From Candidatus Saccharimonadales bacterium (GTDB taxonomy: Bacteria; Patescibacteriota; Saccharimonadia; Saccharimonadales; DATKHC01): 64,000 nt of DNA. Numbering within the stretch: position 1 is the stretch's first letter; each line of letters opens with the position of its first letter. The position numbers were made by a program, and so were the translations under genes. The notes beneath the pieces were generated by a model. That model had not been told where the DNA came from, made no database searches, and was given only the letters and a program-made list of their open reading frames with translations. Where the stretch lies: NCBI GenBank assembly GCA_038317055.1, contig JBBQBA010000002.1, positions 182,967 through 246,966 of the forward strand. Reading direction: 5' to 3'. Below, piece after piece: positions 5,201 through 64,000 of this stretch.

Positions 5201-7093
5201 TTAGATTGAATTACGATGTCTTCGTGCAACGATTTGAGCACCTATGAGTGAAGCTAGAGCTAAAGTAACAATTGAGATTTCTATCATATTGTTTTTTGAT
5301 GTACTCTTTATCGATGAGGGAACAGTGATAAGATCATTTCCTACATTTGACAGATGAGAGTGATTAATAAATGATGCAAGGTTTACTGAGCTTGAGCCAG
5401 AAGATCCGGGTTGAGTACTATTAGAAGTATTTACGAATGAAGTTTTAACATTTGAACTAGTCTTAGGTAAATAATTCATAATTGGGTTAGCAGGATTAGT
5501 TGAGCTGAGCGTATTACTAGGGTCTCCAGTAGTACTTGCGCTGTTTGCAAAGTCAAGAGCTGATCCTAAACTACCGTTCCATTGTCCATATACATTAATA
5601 AACAGTATACCGAACCATCCTGAAAGATTTAGGTTGCTATTAGTTAAGTTAGCTAGACTTACATCAGTGGTTGCATTTCCGGATGTAGCATTTCCTGCAG
5701 TTGTATTGTTTGTTACCGCTGCATCACCACTTTTTGCGTTAACTTTTATATTATTATTTATCGTATCTAAAGTTGTGTTATTTAGTGTTGCAGTATTAGA
5801 GAGGTTATTTGTAACATTTTGATTGACGCCACTAGCCAATAATGCCGAAGTACTTCCCGATGGTGCGTTCATTATTAGTCCTACCCATTTACCAAGAACA
5901 TTTACAAACACTAGCAGACTATTTGCTGCTACGACTTGTTTACCGGTTAGGTTTAGTAAAGTTACATTAGTGTTAGCAGCGCCAGTTGTAGCGCTACCTG
6001 CGGTCGTGTTGTTGCCGACTGCAGCAGTACCTGATTGCGCATTTGAAAGGATATTGTTATTAATTGCTGTTGTATCAGTGTTATTCGCTATAAGACTATT
6101 ACTTATATTCGTAGAGTTCGTATTATTTGAGCCAACATTAGTATTAAGAATTTCGGGTAATAATATATTTCCAGTTAAGTCTCCATAAATATTTATTTCA
6201 CCGATAAATGATTGGCTAGAATTAATTGCTGAATTAATCAAGTTTACTACGTCCGCTACAGCTGTAGCTGAACCTGTTGTAGCGTTACCCCCAGTTGTAT
6301 TAGAATCTACGTTTGCATTCCCACTCTGAGCGTTTAAGACAATATTGTTATTAAGTGTGTTGTTATTACCATTATTTATAGTGATATTGTTAGCTACAGT
6401 GTTATTTACATTATTTAATGAGCTAGGGTTTATTAATAAATCGCCATTAACACTACCATTTAGATTAGCAACGAAAGTAGATAAACCAGATCCATTAAGA
6501 CCACTTGAGGACTGTAAAAGGTTGATTACACCAGCGGTTGATTGAGCATTACCGGTTGTTGCATTGCCCGCGGTAGTATTACCGGTCACAGATGAATTAC
6601 CAGTTGTTGCATTTGAATTAATGCCATTATTTACTGTAGCGTTATTATAACCACTAAAGAATCCGTCATTTGTAACTTGGCCTGTACCAGTTGAACTTGA
6701 GCTTGGTCCAGCCGCAGGGACCACTGCTTGGGTTGAGGGAACTATAATTTTAGGTTTAATTGAACTTTTCAACACATAGGTGTTAGTGTCAGGGTTATAT
6801 ACGTATAAGTTTGAATCCCATCTGCCTGTAAGATTGTTATATGAATAATCTCCCGGAGAAACTGGTGAAGTGATTCCGGTCTTTGGATTCCAAGTATATA
6901 ATCCATTCACCCAGTTACCTGTGGCTACGTCAAAAGTATATGAAGGGTCTGGAGGTGTAGTAGCAGCTTTAGAAGTGTTATTGCTAGGTTGTGGTGCAGC
7001 AAATGCAGGTACTGCAGTAGATCCAAACATTGTAAGCATAATAAGAACTAAAAGGCTTTGTTTAAAAACTCGGAATATTTTAACGTTTTTCAA
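5201..7093 (-). CDS. Secreted N/S/T-rich repeat surface protein with C-terminal TM anchor (paralogue of the 9041..10702 gene)
   Basis: TTG start at 7093 with GGAGGG 7 nt upstream. Signal peptide MKNVKIFRVFKQSLLVLIMLTMFGSTAVPAFA. Four repeat units carry an NTTAGNATTG/SGNA core. Blocks INIYGDLTGNILLP, LLVFVNVLGKWVGLIMNAPSGS and LSGWFGILFINVYGQWNGSLG follow the repeat cores in the same order as in the 9041 gene. C-terminal TM plus ARRHRNSI tail. Confidence 0.7.
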   Translation of the reverse strand: MKNVKIFRVFKQSLLVLIMLTMFGSTAVPAFAAPQPSNNTSKAATTPPDPSYTFDVATGNWVNGLYTWNPKTGITSPVSPGDYSYNNLTGRWDSNLYVYNPDTNTYVLKSSIKPKIIVPSTQAVVPAAGPSSSSTGTGQVTNDGFFSGYNNATVNNGINSNATTGNSSVTGNTTAGNATTGNAQSTAGVINLLQSSSGLNGSGLSTFVANLNGSVNGDLLINPSSLNNVNNTVANNITINNGNNNTLNNNIVLNAQSGNANVDSNTTGGNATTGSATAVADVVNLINSAINSSQSFIGEINIYGDLTGNILLPEILNTNVGSNNTNSTNISNSLIANNTDTTAINNNILSNAQSGTAAVGNNTTAGSATTGAANTNVTLLNLTGKQVVAANSLLVFVNVLGKWVGLIMNAPSGSTSALLASGVNQNVTNNLSNTATLNNTTLDTINNNIKVNAKSGDAAVTNNTTAGNATSGNATTDVSLANLTNSNLNLSGWFGILFINVYGQWNGSLGSALDFANSASTTGDPSNTLSSTNPANPIMNYLPKTSSNVKTSFVNTSNSTQPGSSGSSSVNLASFINHSHLSNVGNDLITVPSSIKSTSKNNMIEISIVTLALASLIGAQIVARRHRNSI

Positions 7094-46549: not shown

Positions 46550-47776
46550 ATGAGACAATCCAAATCTAGCAAAAAACATTCTCACAGAGTACGACATACT
46601 ACATCGGTTGTTTTGGTGTTATTAATAATTTCCTATGTGATAACTATATTGCTTCTTCCCCTAAAACCGATTTATGCGACAAATCTTGCAAGCCCAGTTA
46701 CTGCCAGTGGTCAATTAAGTGTGGTTTGGCCAAATAGCAAACAAGCATCAATCGGAGTACTTGGTTCTGGAACTTTAATATCTAATGGTTCGCAGTTACC
46801 GACTCCAACTGCTAGTATCGCTAAAGTAGTGACTGCACTTACTGTCCTTAAAAAATATCCATTAACCGTCGGACAACAAGGACCCACTATTACAATAAAC
46901 TCTAGTGATGTGGCTGATTACAATAGTTTTGTAGCTCAAGATGGATCTGTAATAAAAGTAGTAGCTGGTGAACAAATTACCGAATACCAAGCACTTCAAG
47001 CAATGTTACTTCCTTCTGCTAATAATATGGCAGATACACTAGCTATTTGGGCATATGGATCAACAGCAAATTATATTGTTGCGGCTAATGCATATGTAAA
47101 ATCATTAAACATGTCAACGACGATAATTTCTGATCCAAGTGGCTTTTCTCCAAACACAGTTAGTACCTCAGCTGATTTAATTAAGCTAGGTGAAGCTGCC
47201 TTAAGTAATCAAGTTGTAGCCCAAATTGTTGATCAAACCAGCGCAATTCTACCGGTAGCTGGGATTGTTAAAAATGTAGATTTTTATTTGGGTGTAGATA
47301 GTCTTATCGGTATTAAAACCGGCAATACTGATCAAGCAGGTGGTTGCTTTTTATCAGCAGCTAAATATGATCTGGGTGGTGGCAATTCTATAACTGTAAT
47401 TGGAGCAGTAATGAATGCACCTAATCTGCACCAGGCTTTAATTCAAACTATTCCAATGCTTAGATCAGTTAAAAATCAAATAGTCTTAAAGACTCTGCCA
47501 GCAGAAACAGCAATAAGTACCTACAAATTACCTTGGGGTGAATCAATTAATTCTGTAACAAAATCTTCAATTGCAATTCCGTATTTACCACAATTACCAA
47601 TTAGTTATTCAAATATTTCAAATAAAGTTATTCCACCTAAAAACATCGATACACAAGTAGGCAGCGTTTCGCTTGGTGTTGGAAATGACAAAAACCGAAC
47701 AGCACTAGTTTTAAACCAAAATATTACTAAACCTTCAATATTCTGGAGATTAACTCATCCACAGTACTTTATTTAG
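46550..47776 (+). CDS. D-alanyl-D-alanine carboxypeptidase (peptidase S11, PBP5/DacA-like)
   Basis: SxxK in TASIAKVV, SxN in PSANNMA and KTG in IKTGNT. N-terminal TM. Confidence 0.7.
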   Translation: MRQSKSSKKHSHRVRHTTSVVLVLLIISYVITILLLPLKPIYATNLASPVTASGQLSVVWPNSKQASIGVLGSGTLISNGSQLPTPTASIAKVVTALTVLKKYPLTVGQQGPTITINSSDVADYNSFVAQDGSVIKVVAGEQITEYQALQAMLLPSANNMADTLAIWAYGSTANYIVAANAYVKSLNMSTTIISDPSGFSPNTVSTSADLIKLGEAALSNQVVAQIVDQTSAILPVAGIVKNVDFYLGVDSLIGIKTGNTDQAGGCFLSAAKYDLGGGNSITVIGAVMNAPNLHQALIQTIPMLRSVKNQIVLKTLPAETAISTYKLPWGESINSVTKSSIAIPYLPQLPISYSNISNKVIPPKNIDTQVGSVSLGVGNDKNRTALVLNQNITKPSIFWRLTHPQYFI

Positions 47777-54707: not shown

Positions 54708-55361
54708 ATGTTGGCCACAAACGACCAATTAAACGCTTTACTTGGGGTGTTTAAGACAGGTGACAAGTTAACTTATAAAAAAGGTGAATTTATAATCCGC
54801 CCCGGACAAAAACCCGCGGGTGTTTTTTATATCCAATCGGGACTTGTTAAAGCCTATGACATAAGTAAGTACGGCGAAGAGAACTTACTGGTTATACGTA
54901 AGGAAAAAGAGATTTTTCCGTTAATTTGGGCAGTAACTGGTCAAGAACGACACATTATTTATGAGGCTCTATCTCCAACCGTCCTCCTTCATGTTTCTAG
55001 AAGTAAATTCTATGACACCTTAAAAGAAAATCCTGAAACCATGACACCAATTCTTGATATGGTTGTAGAAATGTATCGAATTCACAGTGAACGCATTCTA
55101 AACTTAGAATATAGAAGTGTTAGAGAGAGATTAATCTCGTTCTTACTAACTATGTCACTAAGATTTGGCAAAAAAACTAAAAATGATAACGAATTAATTA
55201 TAGATGTACCGCTTAGGCATATTGATATCGCAAGCTCAATTAATGCTACAAGAGAAACTACTAGTAGAGAGATGACCTATCTCGAACATCATAATTTAGT
55301 ATCAACAAAACAATCGATCATTACTCTACTTGATATTGATAAACTCAATTCTTACCTGTAA
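54708..55361 (+). CDS. Crp/Fnr family transcriptional regulator
   Basis: cNMP-binding beta-roll GEFIIRPGQKPAGVFYIQSGLVKAY. C-terminal HTH IASSINATRETTSREMTYLEHHNLV. Confidence 0.7.
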   Translation: MLATNDQLNALLGVFKTGDKLTYKKGEFIIRPGQKPAGVFYIQSGLVKAYDISKYGEENLLVIRKEKEIFPLIWAVTGQERHIIYEALSPTVLLHVSRSKFYDTLKENPETMTPILDMVVEMYRIHSERILNLEYRSVRERLISFLLTMSLRFGKKTKNDNELIIDVPLRHIDIASSINATRETTSREMTYLEHHNLVSTKQSIITLLDIDKLNSYL

Positions 55362-55989: not shown

Positions 55990-58488
55990 GTGAACAAAGA
56001 CCATTTAAAAAAACTAAACTCGACTGAGCTTATAAATCATCTCGGTAGTTCACTTGATGGGCTAACCGCTAGCGAAGCAGACTCCAGAGTTCATAAATAC
56101 GGTCCAAATATATTTAAAGATACTTCGAAGCGCAGTACTTTTTCGCTAATCTTAAAACAATTTAAAAGCTCACTTATATATCTGCTAATTGTTGCTACAG
56201 TTCTGGCATTTATCTTGGGTGACGATAGTGATGCAATTATATTGCTTGTAATTCTACTTATTAATACTGGGCTTGGTTTTTATCAGGAATATAAGTCAGA
56301 GAATGCAGTTGAAAAACTGCAAAAACTTGTTAGCAGAGAAATTCTAGTCAAACGTGATGGCAAAGACACGCTTATTTCAGAGTCACATATTACTATTGGC
56401 GATTTAATAATTCTACGTCAAGGCGATATTGTACCGGCCGATATAAGACTAACGGGTGTTTCGAATGTATCGGTTGATGAGTCTGAACTTACTGGTGAGT
56501 CGATGGCGGTAGCTAAAACGGTGCAGGGCAAAGATTCACTAGTTTTTGCTGGCAGCACCATTGAACAGGGTGAAGCCGAAGGTTATGTCTATGCTATTGC
56601 GAACCAAACAGAACTAGGTAAAATCGCCCACCTATCAAACGACACTAAAAAGACCACTAAGTACGAACAACAACTTAATTCATTTAGTTCTTTTCTAATT
56701 AGAGTTACATTTTTAACACTACTTCTTGTTTTCATAATCAAGGTACTAGTTAACAAAGACCACAATTCAATTATTGATCTTGGGCTTTTTATAGTAGCCC
56801 TATCAATTACTGTCGTACCTGAGGCAATGCCAGTAATCGCAACGCTTACTCTATCAAAAGGAGCTATGCGACTAGCAAAACAACACGTAATTGTTAAAAC
56901 CCTAACGGCAGCTGAGGATCTTGGTAATATTAATATCCTTTGTAGTGATAAAACTGGAACACTAACTCAAAATAAACAAACAGTGACCCACGTTACCGCT
57001 GATAACTTAGAGTTGTTTCAATTACTGGCGATAGCCAGCCTAGAAACTCTTGATGAGAAACGGAAGAAATTTCAAAGTTCATTTGATAGAGCTTTCATAG
57101 ATTATGTACCCGAAAAGCTTCAACGAGAAGCTGAGAATTATAAAAGACTGGCTGAGCTACCTTTTGATCCGAAGTCTAGACGTAGACGGGTAATATTTTC
57201 TGATGCCCACAAAACTTATCTTGTAGAAGTTGGATCAGTTGAAACGCTACTATCTGTTTCGCATGAACATAAACACAAGGAAAAGTATTTAGAACTAATT
57301 AAAAAAGACGGTCGAGAAGGGTTACGCCATCTTGGTATTGCCTATAAGATAATCAAGTACGACAAAAACTATAATATTTTAAAACATGAAGATAAATTAA
57401 AGTTTGTTGGTTACGCTGCTTTAGACGATCCACTTAGACCAACTACTAAACATACTATTGAGCTTGCTAGAGAACTTGGTCTGACAATTAAAATCCTCTC
57501 AGGCGATAGTCGGGAAGTAACTCATTATGTAGCCAGTGAAGTTGGACTAATATCCAAAGCCCAGCTAGCATATACTGGCGATGAATTAGATAAGCTAGAT
57601 ACAGCACAGTTTAATGACACTGTTAAAAATAATGATGTATTTGCCAGACTTGACCCCGAACAGAAGTATAAAATTATTGAAGCATTAAAAAAGCAAGGTA
57701 ATACGGTTGGCTACCAAGGTGACGGCATTAACGATGCACCAGCCTTAAAGCTAGCTGACGTTGCTATTGCTGTTAACAATGCGACTGATGTAGCTCAGGA
57801 AAGTGCGGACATACTTCTGCTTCGCAATGATCTAGGGGTAATAGTAAACGGAGTAAAATACGGCAGAACTATATTCTCTAATATTAATAAGTATATTCGC
57901 TATTCAATGATAGGAAACTTTGGAAACTTTTTTGCCTTGTCGGCACTATACCTTCTTTCAAATGCATCATTACCACTACTACCTATTCAGTTAATCCTAA
58001 CTAGTTTACTTACGGACATTCCTCTTATTACCATTGCTACAGATAATGTAGAAACGTCCGAGCTGCAGAGACCCAGTAAATACAATACACACGCGCTCAT
58101 GTTTATATCTATTTTCCTAGGAACCTTTACGGCACTATTTGAGATTCTATTCTTTACGTTAATTAAAACTCAACCTACAGGAGTCGAGCAAACAGCGTTG
58201 TTCCTTTTCCTTAACTTATCTGGACTTATAGTAATTCTCTCAGTAAGAAACAAAGACCATTTTTGGCGTGCTCCTAAGTTCTCAAGTGAGTTGAAAGTGG
58301 CACTGATAGCACTAGGGGTTATATCAATAGGAATGATCTATATTGGAATAACTAGAGAACTATTTAAGTTAACTGCACTACCTCTCAGTGTGATAGGTCT
58401 TACGATAGCCTCGACGCTTCTCTATTTGCTTGTGCTGGATATTGTTAAGGTTTGGTTCTATCAATCTAAGGTTGGCAGTAACTACTAA
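55990..58488 (+). CDS. Cation-transporting P-type ATPase (P2/P3-like)
   Basis: Phosphorylation site CSDKTGTLT, hinge GDGINDAPAL, the TGES-like segment LTGESMAV and 8-10 TM helices. GTG start. Confidence 0.85.
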   Translation: MNKDHLKKLNSTELINHLGSSLDGLTASEADSRVHKYGPNIFKDTSKRSTFSLILKQFKSSLIYLLIVATVLAFILGDDSDAIILLVILLINTGLGFYQEYKSENAVEKLQKLVSREILVKRDGKDTLISESHITIGDLIILRQGDIVPADIRLTGVSNVSVDESELTGESMAVAKTVQGKDSLVFAGSTIEQGEAEGYVYAIANQTELGKIAHLSNDTKKTTKYEQQLNSFSSFLIRVTFLTLLLVFIIKVLVNKDHNSIIDLGLFIVALSITVVPEAMPVIATLTLSKGAMRLAKQHVIVKTLTAAEDLGNINILCSDKTGTLTQNKQTVTHVTADNLELFQLLAIASLETLDEKRKKFQSSFDRAFIDYVPEKLQREAENYKRLAELPFDPKSRRRRVIFSDAHKTYLVEVGSVETLLSVSHEHKHKEKYLELIKKDGREGLRHLGIAYKIIKYDKNYNILKHEDKLKFVGYAALDDPLRPTTKHTIELARELGLTIKILSGDSREVTHYVASEVGLISKAQLAYTGDELDKLDTAQFNDTVKNNDVFARLDPEQKYKIIEALKKQGNTVGYQGDGINDAPALKLADVAIAVNNATDVAQESADILLLRNDLGVIVNGVKYGRTIFSNINKYIRYSMIGNFGNFFALSALYLLSNASLPLLPIQLILTSLLTDIPLITIATDNVETSELQRPSKYNTHALMFISIFLGTFTALFEILFFTLIKTQPTGVEQTALFLFLNLSGLIVILSVRNKDHFWRAPKFSSELKVALIALGVISIGMIYIGITRELFKLTALPLSVIGLTIASTLLYLLVLDIVKVWFYQSKVGSNY

Positions 58489-58559
58489 ACCCATTTAATG
58501 CTTTATATTTGATTAAAAGTATGTAATAGTATATACCTTAGTATTTTAAGGAGTTACTT

Positions 58560-59195
58560 GTGTCAGAAAACGTTAGATATTTAGGTATTGGGCGTCAAGT
58601 CGAAGAAGACTGGATGCTTGATTTTGAAGATTGTTTTAAAGCGAATATTGGTAATAGAGATGCAAATTTAAAACTGGTAACTCGACCTGGCGTAATTTAT
58701 GCAGATTTCAGAGGTATAGCGGCAAATCTAAGCTCAGATAATCCAATACTTCCTGTATGTAATTCATCAGAAGAAATAGTCGATAAATTAATTGAAACCG
58801 AAGTATTAGATCAGACAATAGCCCGAAGAGGAATAACTAACGCTTTCATTAAAGGTATAGAACTAAGTTCGAGACCCATAAATCTCCAAGGTGGTAGTTT
58901 ACGATTTCCTATAATTGCCAGTGTATACGATGTTAATAATTTAAGCAGTCAAGATAGGTATCAAATTTTACATGAAAAACAGGTAGTTAGAAATTCGTTA
59001 GGCATAAAAGGTGAACTGCCTAATAGTGATAGAATTCCTAGACATAAAATAAAAATAGGTTCATTAGCTTGTGTAGGGGATTTTTTAGGTGAAGGATTCT
59101 TCAAAGCTATTCGAATTGACATGGATAGTACCATAGACTTAACTCCAATCAGTCAAATTGATGACAGATTTAGAAAATCTACTACAAAGCACTAG
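58560..59195 (+). CDS. Hypothetical protein
   Basis: 211 aa with a GTG start and no motif. Confidence 0.4.
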   Translation: MSENVRYLGIGRQVEEDWMLDFEDCFKANIGNRDANLKLVTRPGVIYADFRGIAANLSSDNPILPVCNSSEEIVDKLIETEVLDQTIARRGITNAFIKGIELSSRPINLQGGSLRFPIIASVYDVNNLSSQDRYQILHEKQVVRNSLGIKGELPNSDRIPRHKIKIGSLACVGDFLGEGFFKAIRIDMDSTIDLTPISQIDDRFRKSTTKH

Positions 59196-59254
59196 CTTAA
59201 CTATATATTTGACCCCTGTTAAATAATATAGTATCGTATAGTAATTATATAAGG

Positions 59255-59479
59255 GTGTTTATGTTTCTTCAGCTACCGTTTCGATTTGCCGCTAATCTTC
59301 AAAATACAGTTCTAATAATTAACACAGTAATTATTTTAGCCCTCTTAATTACGGTTGAAATAGTCTTCTCAGAAAAACCAAAAAGCGAACGAAAAGAGCT
59401 AAAGTATTTATTGCCGGTAGTTGTAGTTATTGGCGGAATTTTAATATATGCTGCGATTAAACAAGTAGGTAAGGGTTAG
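59255..59479 (+). CDS. Hypothetical small membrane protein
   Basis: 74 aa with two TM helices, immediately upstream of the CPBP gene. Confidence 0.35.
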   Translation: MFMFLQLPFRFAANLQNTVLIINTVIILALLITVEIVFSEKPKSERKELKYLLPVVVVIGGILIYAAIKQVGKG

Positions 59480-59482
59480 AAT

Positions 59483-60334
59483 ATGACCGATAGTCCTACT
59501 TCAACTCATGAGTCTGATATTGAGAAGCCTGCCAATGTTACCTCAAAAGCTTTAATGGTTATCAATAAAAGTCGTGGAAAAATATATAGCCCGTACTTAA
59601 AACAGTTTTGGGTGTTCAGCTACATCCTGTTTTTTGTGGCTCTTTCACAACTTACACTTCGTTATGACGTTAAGGTTGGTGTCTATATGAACGGTTTAGC
59701 GATAATAGCTCTGCTTGGCTTAGCTATTTTCTATACTCGTGCCAGGAAGTTATCTTTGTCGGCTAATATCCTTCCAGTAGCTACACTTCTTAGTTTAGTA
59801 CTACCTAGGTTATCTAACTTCAGTCGAACTGTGATTTTTTACGACACTATTCTAGTCCTTGCGTTAGTTTATAGATATTTATTTATTTTTGAAGATCCAA
59901 AAGATCAACATAGAACTAAGTTTAGAAATTATGCGATCCTAATTCCTCTCATGATAATAGGTGGGCAGATACTTGGAGTCATAGGTTACGGCATGCTTCG
60001 ACATGATTATCCGTTTTACGGTACGTCGATTGCCATTGTTGCTTTTACTTCCGTTATATTTGTGTTTACTGAAGAGGTCTTCTTTAGGGGTCTCGTTCAA
60101 CTAAAGGGTAATCAAATTCTACATCCAGTTATGTCTGCTATCATGGCAATTTTAGTATTTGTTCTGGCTACTATTACGCACACGATTTCAATAGCCCCCA
60201 TATTTGCTTTAATTTTAGGGACCTCTCTATCACTTACTTATTATTTCAAACAAAACTTAGTTCTAACCGGTACATTAAACCTATCAACCAAGCTAACTTA
60301 TATTGCATTAATGGTAGCCTTTGTAATACATTAG
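59483..60334 (+). CDS. CPBP family intramembrane glutamic endopeptidase (CAAX protease-like)
   Basis: Motif 1 TEEVFFRGLVQ (EExxxR). Polytopic. Downstream His motifs. Confidence 0.65.
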   Translation: MTDSPTSTHESDIEKPANVTSKALMVINKSRGKIYSPYLKQFWVFSYILFFVALSQLTLRYDVKVGVYMNGLAIIALLGLAIFYTRARKLSLSANILPVATLLSLVLPRLSNFSRTVIFYDTILVLALVYRYLFIFEDPKDQHRTKFRNYAILIPLMIIGGQILGVIGYGMLRHDYPFYGTSIAIVAFTSVIFVFTEEVFFRGLVQLKGNQILHPVMSAIMAILVFVLATITHTISIAPIFALILGTSLSLTYYFKQNLVLTGTLNLSTKLTYIALMVAFVIH

Positions 60335-60494
60335 CGGTTATAATTTTTTATTATTGATTGTGAAAGGGAAGTGAAAATATTACTCCTGTGGATAACTTTC
60401 ATAAAGCTTTCACATTTTTATTGACCTATCTCATAATATGGGTCATTATGAGGTTTACTAGTAAACTATATATCACACTAGATAAGGAGAATAG

Positions 60495-60929
60495 ATGAAA
60501 AAATTTATCGTCAGTATCACAGGTTTACTTGCAGGACTAATACTACTACCAATGTCCGTATCTGCTGCACCTGCAACAACGAGTATATCTGGTGCAATAA
60601 CTAATAATGGATCACCTGTATTTCATGCAAAAGTTACTGTAACTTGTAACGGACATGTTAAGCATGTTTCTTCAAATAATGTTGGTGGATATTTAGCTAA
60701 CTTCAAAGCAGCTAATTGTCCAAACGGTTCACACGTAATAGTATCTGCAACTAAAAAAGGTACAGGTGGATCAAGTAGTGGTACAGTCGCTGCGCTAACT
60801 AGTAAGCTGAATGTTTCCGTGATCAATGTGTCTGTACCTGAACTCGGAACAGTCGTAGGAATAAGTGCAGCGGTCTTAGGGGCTGGATCTTTCTTGATAA
60901 TCCGACGACGTCAACTCGGTGCTCACTAA
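60495..60929 (+). CDS. Small secreted protein with PEP-CTERM-like (VPELG-TM-RRRQ) C-terminal sorting signal
   Basis: RBS AAGGAG. Signal peptide MKKFIVSITGLLAGLILLPMSVSA. A transthyretin/CarboxypepD_reg-like beta domain (ITNNGSPVFHAKVTVTCNGH). C-terminus VPELGTVVGISAAVLGAGSFLIIRRRQLGAH. Confidence 0.55.
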   Translation: MKKFIVSITGLLAGLILLPMSVSAAPATTSISGAITNNGSPVFHAKVTVTCNGHVKHVSSNNVGGYLANFKAANCPNGSHVIVSATKKGTGGSSSGTVAALTSKLNVSVINVSVPELGTVVGISAAVLGAGSFLIIRRRQLGAH

Positions 60930-61875
60930 AAAGAAAATATATAAAAATAAAAAGCTAGAAGCTGCTGCACCACTACTATTACGTACAGCAGCTTTTCTAG
61001 TATTGTTTATTTTGTTATCAGGAATCATCGGACCGAGAATAATTAGTCATGGACTCGTAAATAAATATGGCTTCCAAATATACGGTGGTGGAGGAAAGTC
61101 TTTATTATTTGGAGTAATAGTTCTACTTATATTGGTATATAGAAAAGGCTTAGATATAAAATTTAGAGCATGGGAAAAATTAAATATAGGCTGGTTAATT
61201 ATCGCTGTTATATCAGCACTAGGAGCTTGGAACTGTATTGGTATACTTATCGCTGGTAAGGGCGCAATAGGTACTCAGATACTAACTAATTTATATATCA
61301 TTGCAAGTATAGCTTTTATAGCCATTGGTACTTTTGGATTAGATAATATTAAATTATTTTACAAAAAATACAGCAAAGAACTGATAATGTCTTTCCTATT
61401 ATGCATTGCTTTTTATGGATTTATATACATTGTATATAAGTTATGGGGAATTCTGGCACTTATAGTATTACATTCTGTTAAGTGGCTATTAAATGAAACA
61501 GATATTAGCGCAAGCATTGTACCACCTAGGACATTAGTATTAAGTAAATTTGGGATTGAAGTAGCAAAGTATTGCTCTGGTATAGAATCCATAGCTCTTT
61601 TCAGCGGACTATATGCAATTTTCGCAATACTGGACTGGAACAAATTCAATCATAGAAAACTAGCTTACACATTCCCAATCGCCGTTGTTATACTTTTTGG
61701 ACTAAATATTATTAGGATATTTGTACTTATTATTGGTGGTTATTATATTAATCCGCAAATTGCGTTTAGTTTATTTCACACATATGCTGGTATGGTATTC
61801 TTTATTATATATTCTGGACTTTTCTGGGGGATATGTTACAAATGGTTACTGGTGAGAAAAAATCAAATTTCATGA
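60919..61875 (+). CDS. Exosortase/archaeosortase family membrane protein (XrtG-like)
   Basis: 318 aa with about 8 TM helices. A Cys motif KYCSGIESIA (candidate catalytic Cys) is followed 47 aa later by GLNIIRIFV (conserved N..R). GTG start overlapping the upstream gene by 11 nt. Confidence 0.5.
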   Translation: MLTKKKIYKNKKLEAAAPLLLRTAAFLVLFILLSGIIGPRIISHGLVNKYGFQIYGGGGKSLLFGVIVLLILVYRKGLDIKFRAWEKLNIGWLIIAVISALGAWNCIGILIAGKGAIGTQILTNLYIIASIAFIAIGTFGLDNIKLFYKKYSKELIMSFLLCIAFYGFIYIVYKLWGILALIVLHSVKWLLNETDISASIVPPRTLVLSKFGIEVAKYCSGIESIALFSGLYAIFAILDWNKFNHRKLAYTFPIAVVILFGLNIIRIFVLIIGGYYINPQIAFSLFHTYAGMVFFIIYSGLFWGICYKWLLVRKNQIS

Positions 61876-62756
61876 GTAAAAACAAAGTCGATTTGATTGT
61901 TGTTATACCAATTGGTCCTGACAATAACGGTTCAGATACTATAGATAGTGTTTTTTGTTATTGTATAGAATCTGTAATTATTATTGCAGTTGACGATAGC
62001 AGATCGGTCAATACAAAAAAATATTTGGATAATGTAGACCCTAGAGTCATTAGGTTATCGTCTTCAGGATATAAGGGCATAAGAGGAGCGCTATGGCTGA
62101 ATCTTATAGATGCATATAAATTTGCTATCGAAAATTATAAATTCAAAGTTCTATTAAGAATTGATACTGATGGACTAGTAATTAATAGTCATCCAGAAAA
62201 AGATGCACTCAAATTTTTTAATAGTCATCCAGGTGCAGGAATGTTGGGCGCTTATAAGAAGCGTTCAGATGGTAAAAAAAGAAATTTTATAATTGTAGCG
62301 TGCATAATATTACGCGAAACAAGCATTTATGGAATAAGTTATCCCGATAGAAGAATCTTAATTAAGGAGTTGGTCAAAGAGGCAAGAAAAAAAGGTTATA
62401 GGCTAGGAGAACATTGTCAAGGTGGTGCAGTATTTCAGTCATATTCAGCTATTGCAGCAATGTATATAAATAATAAACTTAACTCTTCTAAATTCCAACC
62501 TATGTATAACAGTGCAATAAGTGAAGACCATTTATTTAGTCTTTTAACCATACTTTTAGGATTTACGCTTGAGGATTTTGCTACCGAAGGTCTTCCAATG
62601 GGCATAAAATGGCGTGGACTCCCAGATTCCCCAGAAAATCTAGTCTTACAAAACAAGAAGATTATTCATTCAATTAAATTCTGGCAGGATATGGACCAGG
62701 AAAAAATTCGTATTTTTTTTGCAAGGAAGCGTATAAACGACAACGAACAAGCTTAG
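61872..62756 (+). CDS. GT-A fold glycosyltransferase (GT2-like), exosortase-associated
   Basis: LIVVIPIGPDN, IAVDDS and RIDTDGLV (DxD). ATGA overlap with the exosortase-like gene. The ORF-track start at 61833 is probably too early. Confidence 0.5.
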   Translation: MSKNKVDLIVVIPIGPDNNGSDTIDSVFCYCIESVIIIAVDDSRSVNTKKYLDNVDPRVIRLSSSGYKGIRGALWLNLIDAYKFAIENYKFKVLLRIDTDGLVINSHPEKDALKFFNSHPGAGMLGAYKKRSDGKKRNFIIVACIILRETSIYGISYPDRRILIKELVKEARKKGYRLGEHCQGGAVFQSYSAIAAMYINNKLNSSKFQPMYNSAISEDHLFSLLTILLGFTLEDFATEGLPMGIKWRGLPDSPENLVLQNKKIIHSIKFWQDMDQEKIRIFFARKRINDNEQA

Positions 62757-62758
62757 CT

Positions 62759-64000
62759 ATGATTGGCAATAAAGGAAATATTATTAACGTATACAATCGC
62801 TTGATGCAGGATAGTTTACGCCGCAATTCCTCATTATTAATATTGAGTCAGGCAATAAATGCAGTTGGTGCATTCTTTTTTTGGGTCGTGTGTGCTCATT
62901 TATTCGGTGCAAACATTATTGGATTATCGATAGCATTCGTGAGCTTCGCAAATTTAATATCAACATTTACTAACCTTGGTTTACCTAATACTATTGTTCG
63001 ATTTCTAGCTAGAACCAAGGATAAGTGTGGATTATTCATAGCGGCTTTTTACATTGTTTTTTTCGTTTCAGTAGTTGGTGGATTACTATGCCTTATATTC
63101 GTTAAAACTATGCTACCAAAACTAGGGTTAATTCATTCATCCACTTTCTTATCCGTAACACTTGTATTGTTGGTAACATGTACAGCTCTTAGTTCGTTAA
63201 TGGATGGAACTATATTAGCATTTCGAAAAGGGGAGTATATTCTTGGTAAAGCTATTATTGTTAATGTACCGAGGATGATATTACCATTTTTTGTTGTATC
63301 TCTTGGCATAAAAGGAATAACTGGAGTTTATGCTATAGTTTTAATTGCAGGAATTTCTTATAACTTAATTATTACCAATAAAAGATTAATTAAACTTTAC
63401 CCATTAAAGCTTAACATTGGTGAGATTAAAAAACACAAAGCATATTCGATAAGTAATTACTTCGGAGGAATGTTGGGTGTATTGCCGGGCACACTAGTTC
63501 CAATAATAATAGTAAGTATTCTCGGTTCTGAATCTGCCGCATTTTTTTATATGCCAATGCAGATTGCCGCATTTCTTAGTATAATATCTAGTTCAACGTC
63601 TCAAGCACTCCTATCAGAGTCGGCACAAACTGAAAATGTAGTGAGTCACAAGAAATATTTCAGAAATGCATTTATTCATTTATATCGTTTGCTTATACCT
63701 GCAATACTTTTACTGTGCTTGCTAGGGTGGCCTTTACTAAGGATATATGGTGCTCAGTATGCTAAGGAGGGTTACATACCTCTTCTTATACTAGCCATTT
63801 CAAGCTTGTTTGTTGGGATAAATTGGCTTGGAGATACATGGCTTAATATCCAAAAACGTTCCAAGGCTTATTTTCTGATGAATGCATTTAATGCTTTTGC
63901 TGTAATTGGTTTTATACTAATTTTTGCTTCACACGGATTGGTGGCAGTTGGAATAGGATGGTTACTAGGGCAGGTCATATCCGCTGCAATATATTTTATT
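62759..64000 (+). CDS. Wzx-like polysaccharide biosynthesis protein / MOP-family flippase (3' partial, runs off the window)
   Basis: Manual translation from ATG 62759 gives 414 codons with no stop and more than 10 TM helices (MIGNKGNIINVYNRLMQDSLRRNSSLLILSQAINAVGAFFFWVV...). Absent from the ORF track because it is edge-truncated. Confidence 0.6.
   Translation, partial: MIGNKGNIINVYNRLMQDSLRRNSSLLILSQAINAVGAFFFWVVCAHLFGANIIGLSIAFVSFANLISTFTNLGLPNTIVRFLARTKDKCGLFIAAFYIVFFVSVVGGLLCLIFVKTMLPKLGLIHSSTFLSVTLVLLVTCTALSSLMDGTILAFRKGEYILGKAIIVNVPRMILPFFVVSLGIKGITGVYAIVLIAGISYNLIITNKRLIKLYPLKLNIGEIKKHKAYSISNYFGGMLGVLPGTLVPIIIVSILGSESAAFFYMPMQIAAFLSIISSSTSQALLSESAQTENVVSHKKYFRNAFIHLYRLLIPAILLLCLLGWPLLRIYGAQYAKEGYIPLLILAISSLFVGINWLGDTWLNIQKRSKAYFLMNAFNAFAVIGFILIFASHGLVAVGIGWLLGQVISAAIYFI

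Follow-up and report, generated by a model that had tools for sequence, protein, structure and literature searches.

The PEP-CTERM sorting system was described from diderm bacteria alone, and the median number of its substrates per genome was 8 (PMC1569441); the archaeosortase ArtA removes the PGF-CTERM helix and is required, together with PssA and PssD, for lipid anchoring (10.1101/2023.06.07.544157). In L. plantarum, a complete XrtG system has been reported in which a Firmicu-CTERM protein is encoded next to XrtG and two glycosyltransferases (PMC12854382). Exosortases and archaeosortases have in common a nearly perfectly conserved Cys/Arg/His set, regarded by Haft as their putative catalytic triad (10.1101/2023.06.07.544157; PMC1569441). 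Here we analyse a 64,000-nucleotide (nt) stretch from a Candidatus Saccharimonadales bacterium (contig JBBQBA010000002.1, positions 182,967 to 246,966 of the forward strand; hereafter the window, from whose first nucleotide all coordinates are counted), which carries near its end a gene for an exosortase-family membrane protein directly behind the gene for a secreted protein of 144 amino acids (aa) with a three-part C-terminal tail. We read these two genes as the core of a dedicated exosortase sorting system of Candidatus Saccharibacteria, in which the small protein is the substrate of the adjacent enzyme, and give this pairing a probability of about 0.7. Most known exosortase systems handle many substrates in complex double-membrane envelopes, and we know of no bacterial exosortase for which the substrate acceptor and the destination of the product have been established. 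Patescibacteria are monoderm (PMC11665869); a literature search found no paper on exosortases in Saccharibacteria or Patescibacteria, nor one on VPEID-CTERM.

Enzyme and predicted substrate

The gene at 60919..61875 (+ strand, GTG start) encodes a 318-aa membrane protein that, judged by its sequence, is a member of the exosortase/archaeosortase family: it matches PF09721 (Exosortase_EpsH; Pfam) at 66.5 bits against a cutoff of 25.7 and TIGR04178 (the exosortase/archaeosortase signature; NCBIfam) at 60.7 bits against a cutoff of 23. This bears out the family resemblance seen in an initial annotation of the same DNA, and the JGI annotation of its homologues already names the exosortase/archaeosortase family. 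The top named subfamily is TIGR04162 ("exosortase E/protease, VPEID-CTERM system"), with 61.6 bits against a cutoff of 150 and a match that spans model positions 141-291 of 516 only, followed by weaker NCBIfam matches to EpsH, XrtX, XrtV, XrtA and XrtQ. The subfamily to which the enzyme appears to belong is thus an unnamed one: the protein scores above the cutoff of no named subfamily, the nearest being XrtE and, for its distant relatives, ArtC.

The KYCSG motif carries Cys219 (61573-61575) and an N-I-I-R motif, 47 residues later, carries Arg266 (61714-61716), the two residues that the initial annotation had picked as catalytic; alignment agrees with this choice and adds His287 (61777-61779) as the third putative catalytic residue. 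A database search returned 335 homologues, most of them with a length of ~315 aa and an identity of ~50%, and C219, N263, R266 and H287 are unchanged across the 30 that were aligned. A profile search of 1.84 billion cluster representatives extended the family to 1825 relatives at E <= 1e-3 (56 at E <= 1e-30). In 83 aligned distant relatives, only 20-40% identical to the window enzyme, Cys is found at the position of C219 in 82/83, Arg at R266 in 83/83 and His at H287 in 83/83; such strict retention of all three residues argues for retained catalysis. The subfamily matches of these same 83 proteins were to XrtE in 52/83 and to ArtC in 22/83.

An AlphaFold2 (AF2) model of the enzyme, built from the 30-sequence alignment (predicted local distance difference test score 84.7, predicted template modelling score 0.77), shows 8-9 membrane-length helices, in keeping with the roughly eight transmembrane (TM) helices expected at the outset and above the six that had been named as a minimum; at least 7 clear TM segments are seen by hydropathy. 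The model also places one extracytoplasmic beta-hairpin (residues 198-214) immediately N-terminal of Cys219. Neither a search by sequence of the PDB nor Foldseek revealed a meaningful resemblance to a solved structure.

The predicted substrate is encoded at 60495..60929 (+), behind a Shine-Dalgarno sequence GGAG read at 60485-60488, and frame translations place the start of the exosortase gene 11 nt inside its 3' end. The 144-aa protein begins with MKKFIVSITGLLAGLILLPMSVSA|APATT, a Sec-type signal peptide covering aa 1-24 (MKK...SVSA|A), continues with a prealbumin/CarboxypepD_reg-like beta-sandwich (aa 28-109) containing two invariant Cys residues, and ends in ...NVS-V114PELG118-TVVGISAAVLGAGSFLII-R137RRQLGAH. 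The sorting signal as a whole occupies 60834..60914 (+): VPELG is aa 114-118 (60834-60848), the TM segment aa 119-136 (60849-60902) and RRRQ aa 137-140 (60903-60914). The secreted protein with its VPELG-helix-RRRQ ending had been recognised in the initial annotation, and the open reading frame (ORF) is confirmed; the helix, there given 19 residues, has 18.

Conservation of this tail is high in the ORFs called in the fetched loci, on which all tail statistics rest. P115, E116, G118, C51 and C75 are invariant among 31 homologues of the 144-aa protein. PExG is present in 31/33 tails with the composition [V16 I11 L3 A1]-P-E-[Y11 F10 L5 M4 V1]-G, the residue after PE being Y, F, L, M or V and never P, and PEFG and PEYG being the commonest forms. 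The distance from the Gly to the first basic residue is exactly 18 residues in 28/31 tails, the stretch in between is hydrophobic and rich in Gly, and after it come a basic cluster, RRR or the like, and then 2-10 more residues. The proposal that this protein is the likely cognate substrate, which had been tied to conservation of the tripartite tail in orthologues, is strengthened by these counts. There is no spacer between the motif and the TM segment: a motif abutting its helix is typical of signals cut by membrane-embedded enzymes, unlike LPXTG signals (Haft, 10.1101/2023.06.07.544157).

None of the curated NCBIfam sorting-domain models fits the tail, either in the window protein or in the 31 homologues. 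For the window protein, only LpfD and LPXTG_anchor gave weak matches at E <= 10, Firmicu-CTERM gave none at that threshold and the PEP-CTERM model (TIGR02595) likewise went unmatched. Weak matches among the homologues were to Microco_LAVTG (16/31, best E = 6.6e-5) and LPXTG_anchor (12/31); PEFG-CTERM was matched by one homologue (E = 0.015), Firmicu-CTERM was absent from the top families of all 31, and no VPEID-CTERM match was reported for the tails. The protein family is sparsely represented in annotation: database searches returned 3 matches with the single protein and 13 with a profile, and those entries that could be checked are nameless or termed "hypothetical protein".

The tail is also found on a passenger of another kind. 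In one related locus (L023), a 125-aa protein encoded at 5567-5944 (+), directly 5' of an exosortase homologue at 5968-6882, carries an APEFG-TM-KKR tail on an acidic, Asp/His-rich sequence (…HDDDDDEHEHGCDDDKHRDDDECVVS) that has no similarity to the beta-sandwich family. The same tail on an unrelated passenger implies that the tail travels with the enzyme, independent of the passenger domain, and suggests that other passenger domains, too, can bear the tag.

As a side observation, the residues just before PExG contain N-x-S sequons (LNVSVINVS, aa 105-113, window 60807-60833), and one or two such sequons (…LNVxxVNVS) occur at the same position in most family members; they may mark a site of glycosylation or reflect no more than the pattern of a beta-strand.

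Gene linkage and neighbouring genes

In order to place the locus among its relatives, one genome per species was scanned with the alignment as query, which yielded 24 loci; the same scan with the single protein yielded none. Nearly all of the 24 are metagenome-assembled genomes (MAGs) of Candidatus Saccharibacteria/Saccharimonadales, with one labelled Daviesbacteria, and the closest relatives of the window are 58% identical, which with its GC content of 35% would by itself make a Saccharibacterium the most likely source. Linkage was counted over the 23 informative loci, in which ORFs were called and searched by phmmer with five window proteins. One to three homologues of the 144-aa protein lie beside the exosortase gene in 22/23 loci and directly upstream in 21/23, where the substrate gene often overlaps the exosortase start; several loci have two or three tandem copies, three (L012, L018 and L020) have an additional copy directly downstream of the exosortase, and in L022 the homologue adjoins the exosortase on the opposite strand. 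Tail and pairing alike are found again in 22/23 informative loci and so are not products of chance. The related loci range in GC content from 35% to 59% and their other flanking genes differ, which argues that the linkage of substrate and exosortase is functional and not a mere reflection of relatedness. In the 64-kb window and ~270 kb of flanking sequence, ORFs with such a tail were found only close to exosortase genes.

Clustering of the ORFs gives a conserved core of four elements: a 2-TM protein, a CPBP homologue, the substrate(s) and the exosortase. In the window, the CPBP (Rce1/CAAX-protease-like) protein is a polytopic membrane protein of 283 aa (59483..60334, +) with a PF02517 score of 28.8 bits (cutoff 22.4); its top NCBIfam match, to MrtS, is weak (E = 4.5e-4). 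Such a gene had been reported as immediately preceding the locus, and it proves to be a conserved neighbour: homologues lie 5' of the exosortase in 17/23 loci by phmmer, 14 of them in one BLAST cluster (c2). CPBP proteases carry the catalytic motifs EExxxR, FxxxH and HxxxN. EExxxR is kept in most of the 15 sequences aligned, and the His of the second motif is present in the window protein and in 8/14 homologues. Directly before the CPBP gene lies a 74-aa ORF from the ORF list (59255..59479, +) with 2 TM segments by hydropathy and no Pfam family; homologues of ~72 aa stand immediately 5' of the CPBP gene in 12 loci (cluster c3) and in L026, and the Daviesbacteria-labelled locus has both CPBP and 2-TM homologues. 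The idea that the CPBP and exosortase genes are the two halves of a split XrtE was rejected, since the CPBP protein is unmatched by the XrtE model (TIGR04162) and the exosortase matches it in the common core only.

Two further patterns were seen at this position. In place of the CPBP/2-TM pair, L010, L015 and L018 encode a response regulator and a histidine kinase, along with a conserved ~590-aa protein without a Pfam match (clusters c12-c14), which hints at regulated expression in that lineage. A candidate ORF of ~75 aa, 2-TM-like and without a Pfam family (cluster c7), occurs on the opposite strand, usually between the CPBP and substrate genes, at L007:5203-5433 (-) and in seven other loci; it is absent from the window.

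Downstream of the exosortase, the window carries two more genes. The third gene (61872..62756, +; 294 aa, or 307 aa as the longer ORF from 61833) forms an ATGA overlap with the exosortase gene if the ATG at 61872 is used. Its product is possibly GT-A-like, a label suggested by DD and DTD motifs visible by eye alone: the sole Pfam match is PF13712 (E = 0.046; 13.9 bits, below the cutoff of 27), and searches returned no NCBIfam match and no relevant sequence relative in the PDB. The initial annotation had taken this glycosyltransferase as the defining partner of the enzyme; with a homologue in 0/23 related loci, it is not. The fourth gene (62759..64000, +; 414 aa seen, continuing past the end of the window) encodes the Wzx/MOP-type polysaccharide flippase that had been predicted, although it passes the PF01943 cutoff narrowly (30.3 against 28.2 bits, on a partial product). 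By phmmer, 12 loci have flippase homologues no more than 6 kb from the exosortase, 11 of them in BLAST cluster c6, with E values against the Wzx-like neighbours of related loci down to 4.8e-124. All four genes of the initial annotation, from substrate to flippase, are present and consecutive; the first two junctions overlap as it described, whereas the fourth ORF starts (ATG 62759) 2 nt past the stop of the third without overlap.

The genes downstream of the exosortase vary among the related loci and include Wzx-type flippases, GT4/GT1 and GT2 glycosyltransferases, polysaccharide pyruvyl transferases and pectate-lyase-like proteins. Some are fused to the enzyme itself: one protein (P0124) joins exosortase and pyruvyl transferase in a single 743-aa ORF (L026:5001-7232) with the full upstream module present, and two others, P0164 (L027:1988-4189) and P0173, join exosortase and Wzx in either order. 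On their predicted domain make-up, these fusions tie the exosortase to glycan assembly. One additional homologue (P0181, 802 aa) has a C-terminal extension of ~480 aa without a Pfam match.

The remaining features of the window add little. The 160-nt gap 5' of the substrate gene contains two overlapping sigma-70-like hexamer pairs (60409..60449, +), among them one of the two best consensus matches (10/12) in 58400-64000; the total number of matches over this range equals that in shuffled sequence, so that this promoter candidate is a hint at most, and the promoter and terminator scans, whose counts were the same as for shuffled sequence, are uninformative. No rRNA, tRNA or tmRNA gene and no Rfam family at gathering thresholds was found in the whole window (1-64000), which has a GC content of 35%. 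Further upstream lie an 832-aa ORF that is P-type cation ATPase-like by its DKTGT motif (55990-58488, +), a Crp-family regulator (cNMP_binding and HTH_Crp_2; 54708-55361, +) and a D-Ala-D-Ala carboxypeptidase (Peptidase_S11; 46550-47776, +), all of which appear unrelated to the sorting locus, with several intervening ORFs lacking a Pfam match, including one of 211 aa at 58560-59195.

Proposed mechanism and alternatives

In the mechanism that we propose, the 144-aa protein would be exported by the Sec pathway and would then lose its signal peptide. The C-terminal helix would hold it in the membrane, with the RRR cluster cytoplasmic and the [VIL]PE[YFLM]G motif exactly at the outer face of the membrane. 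There the adjacent exosortase would recognise the motif, and Cys219, aided by Arg266 and His287, would attack within or next to PExG, upon which the helix and the RRR stub would be removed. The disulfide-containing beta-sandwich of ~90 residues could then be set free or, as the precedent of ArtA and sortases makes more likely, be passed to a surface acceptor, either a membrane lipid or a glycan made by the products of the adjoining Wzx, glycosyltransferase and pyruvyl-transferase genes; on the choice between lipid and local glycan our confidence is far lower than on the pairing of enzyme and substrate. The 2-TM and CPBP-like proteins would be accessory partners, which may serve as scaffold or in disposal of the stub, in parallel to the exosortases fused to a CAAX-protease domain: four EpsH-CAAX-protease fusion proteins were read by Haft (2006) as evidence of a functional link (PMC1569441). 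The proposal in its fullest form, namely an exosortase subfamily that Saccharibacteria and some other bacteria of the candidate phyla radiation (CPR) have to themselves, with a [VIL]PE[YFLM]G/18-residue/RRR signal, covalently attaching a tiny disulfide-containing beta-sandwich protein to a glycan of the Wzx/pyruvyl-transferase locus or to a lipid, with a degenerate CPBP protein and a 2-TM partner, is put forward tentatively, and taken as a whole we would lean slightly against it.

Several observations weigh against this reading. Two paralogues next to an exosortase lack the PE (VPRAS in L002 and VPVFG in L005), and no second tail-bearing protein is present in the 64-kb window, the only part of this genome that was searched. 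Six loci carry labels from outside the CPR (L002, Verrucomicrobiia; L007, Sulfotelmatobacter; L018, Acidoferrum; L022, Gammaproteobacteria; L023, Pseudomonadales; L024, Methanobacterium): these are probably binning errors of the MAGs, and may otherwise indicate a wider distribution of the system. No CPBP homologue lies within 6 kb in 6/23 loci; where one is present, the His of the third motif is absent in all 15 sequences (mostly replaced by Thr, with the Asn retained), and L012, L020 and L026 are also without the EE/R motif, observations which together make a protease role for this protein doubtful and a scaffold or accessory role likelier than proteolysis. Finally, what the analysis shows is family membership, conservation of the triad and of the tail, and linkage of the genes; that cleavage occurs in this clade, at which site, with which acceptor and with what part played by the CPBP protein is something that we infer. 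Regarding the PE-less paralogues, it can be added that each is the exosortase-nearest of several tandem copies (L002:3323-3742 and L005:5562-5999) and ends at RRR or RRS; they may be non-cleavable or differently handled.

The inferred status of cleavage leaves some room for an arrangement in which the 144-aa protein is permanently tail-anchored, PExG acts as a hinge or interaction site and the exosortase homologue is a scaffold for polysaccharide assembly. The fixed length of the Gly-rich, 18-residue helix could reflect helix-helix packing in such a complex, and the fusions to Wzx and pyruvyl transferase show how tight the link to glycan assembly is; still, the Cys, Arg and His are strictly kept even in distant relatives and the three-part layout is the same as that of signals removed experimentally by relatives such as ArtA (10.1101/2023.06.07.544157), and we therefore consider permanent anchoring unlikely. 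Less probable again is that the exosortase homologue acts only in polysaccharide export and that the tag is cleaved by the CPBP protein, in the manner of the myxosortases (MrtX, MrtC, MrtJ, MrtS). For several tripartite signals, the sorting protease is known or predicted to be a CPBP protein (10.1101/2023.06.07.544157; PMC11980579), and here the CPBP gene is a conserved neighbour whose product has MrtS as its best, if weak, NCBIfam match. Myxosortase-type signals, however, carry an invariant Cys (10.1101/2023.06.07.544157) that this tail lacks, and it is the exosortase whose triad is complete, whilst the CPBP protein always lacks its second catalytic His and, in some lineages, EE/R as well; the substrate, moreover, stands beside the exosortase in 22/23 loci, a constancy that the CPBP gene does not attain.

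Two further explanations appear to us very improbable. One would see in the locus an XrtG-type system, the Gram-positive exosortase G defined by its GT2 partner, with a newly found substrate, as the initial annotation did in calling the enzyme XrtG-like. The order of substrate, exosortase, possible glycosyltransferase and flippase in a monoderm host does resemble the L. plantarum XrtG locus (PMC12854382), but the XrtG and XrtG-associated glycosyltransferase models of NCBIfam find no match at E <= 1, the substrate is not recognised by Firmicu-CTERM, the third gene combines a sub-threshold Pfam match with the lack of any homologue in the 23 loci, and the nearest named subfamilies are XrtE (itself below cutoff) and, for distant relatives, ArtC. 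The other would have the tail as a divergent LPXTG-type signal processed by a classical sortase, to which the weak Microco_LAVTG and LPXTG_anchor matches of the tails could point, and Saccharibacteria do encode sortases (Southlakia gene table, PMC10633639). Against this, the motif contains no Thr and, unlike LPXTG signals, abuts its helix directly, the window has neither a TLxTC signature in a plausible ORF nor an LPXTG tail, and the tail gene is linked to an exosortase in every locus.

If the exosortase reading holds, the locus would represent a minimal one-enzyme, one-substrate exosortase system in a single-membrane bacterium, a candidate component of the surface of CPR cells and, in environmental Saccharibacteria, a surface-protein module of wide conservation. 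How Saccharibacteria live on their host bacteria is governed by their cell surface, of which little is understood. With one enzyme, one to three tiny substrates, a rigid tag and a single membrane, the system would be a simple case for reconstitution, and a new C-terminal sorting-domain model and the exosortase subfamily could enter annotation resources; its chief interest lies in this minimal make-up and in the handle that it would offer on the CPR cell surface. Among the genes tabulated for the cultivated Southlakia epibionticum are sortases and one CPBP protein but no exosortase (PMC10633639). In the same organism, a PEGA-domain (prealbumin-like) protein adjoins a sortase gene (SEML1_0326/0327), both genes being called essential (ES) in two of three call columns (PMC10633639 supplementary table); this pair may parallel the pair of prealbumin-like substrate and exosortase described here.

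Comparison with known systems

The closest named relative is the XrtE/VPEID-CTERM system: XrtE is the top named subfamily for the window enzyme and for 52/83 of its distant relatives, the signal starts with VPE in both cases and the exosortase comes with a protease partner, in XrtE a domain of the CPBP/CAAX type. The similarity has clear limits, and the score of 61.6 against 150 bits, confined to the catalytic core, tells against a closer kinship: XrtE is fused to its protease, whereas here the CPBP protein is encoded by a separate gene, has a degenerate site and is separated from the exosortase by the substrate gene. After PE, moreover, the motif of these tails has [YFLM]G where VPEID has ID, the host belongs to the monoderm CPR bacteria, and the enzyme has only one to three dedicated small substrates.

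With XrtG/Firmicu-CTERM the locus shares a monoderm host, a single dedicated substrate gene beside the exosortase and sugar genes alongside (PMC12854382); it differs in that no match to the models of that system is detectable and the downstream glycosyltransferase-like gene is not conserved. The L. plantarum system also changes what can be called new. It had been stated that no substrate is known for XrtG, which the published Firmicu-CTERM protein contradicts, and that a substrate directly upstream of such an enzyme would be an undescribed arrangement: the pairing of a substrate with an exosortase in a monoderm is not undescribed as such, given that publication (PMC12854382), whilst the subfamily, the motif and the taxon are.

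The archaeosortases belong to the same enzyme superfamily, have the same triad and act in a single-membrane envelope, and the ArtC model is matched, below its cutoff, by 22/83 distant relatives. The signal of ArtC is PEF-CTERM, and the PEFG and PEYG forms of the tail presumably resemble archaeal PEF-type signals. In contrast to these systems, the clade of the window enzyme is bacterial and the window protein itself has no ArtC match, the substrates are tiny single-domain proteins and not large S-layer glycoproteins, and no genes of the pssA/pssD type were seen in the flanks.

In case of XrtA/PEP-CTERM (EpsH), the likeness consists in a common family with weak EpsH and XrtA matches, a three-part signal and a position amid exopolysaccharide genes (PMC1569441); the differences are a monoderm host, the PExG motif, one to three adjacent substrates and the lack of a PEP-CTERM model match. 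The enzyme family and the type of system to which the locus belongs are thus known already, and the novelty lies in the exosortase subfamily, which has no name as yet, in the tag and in the accessory pair that characterises the system.

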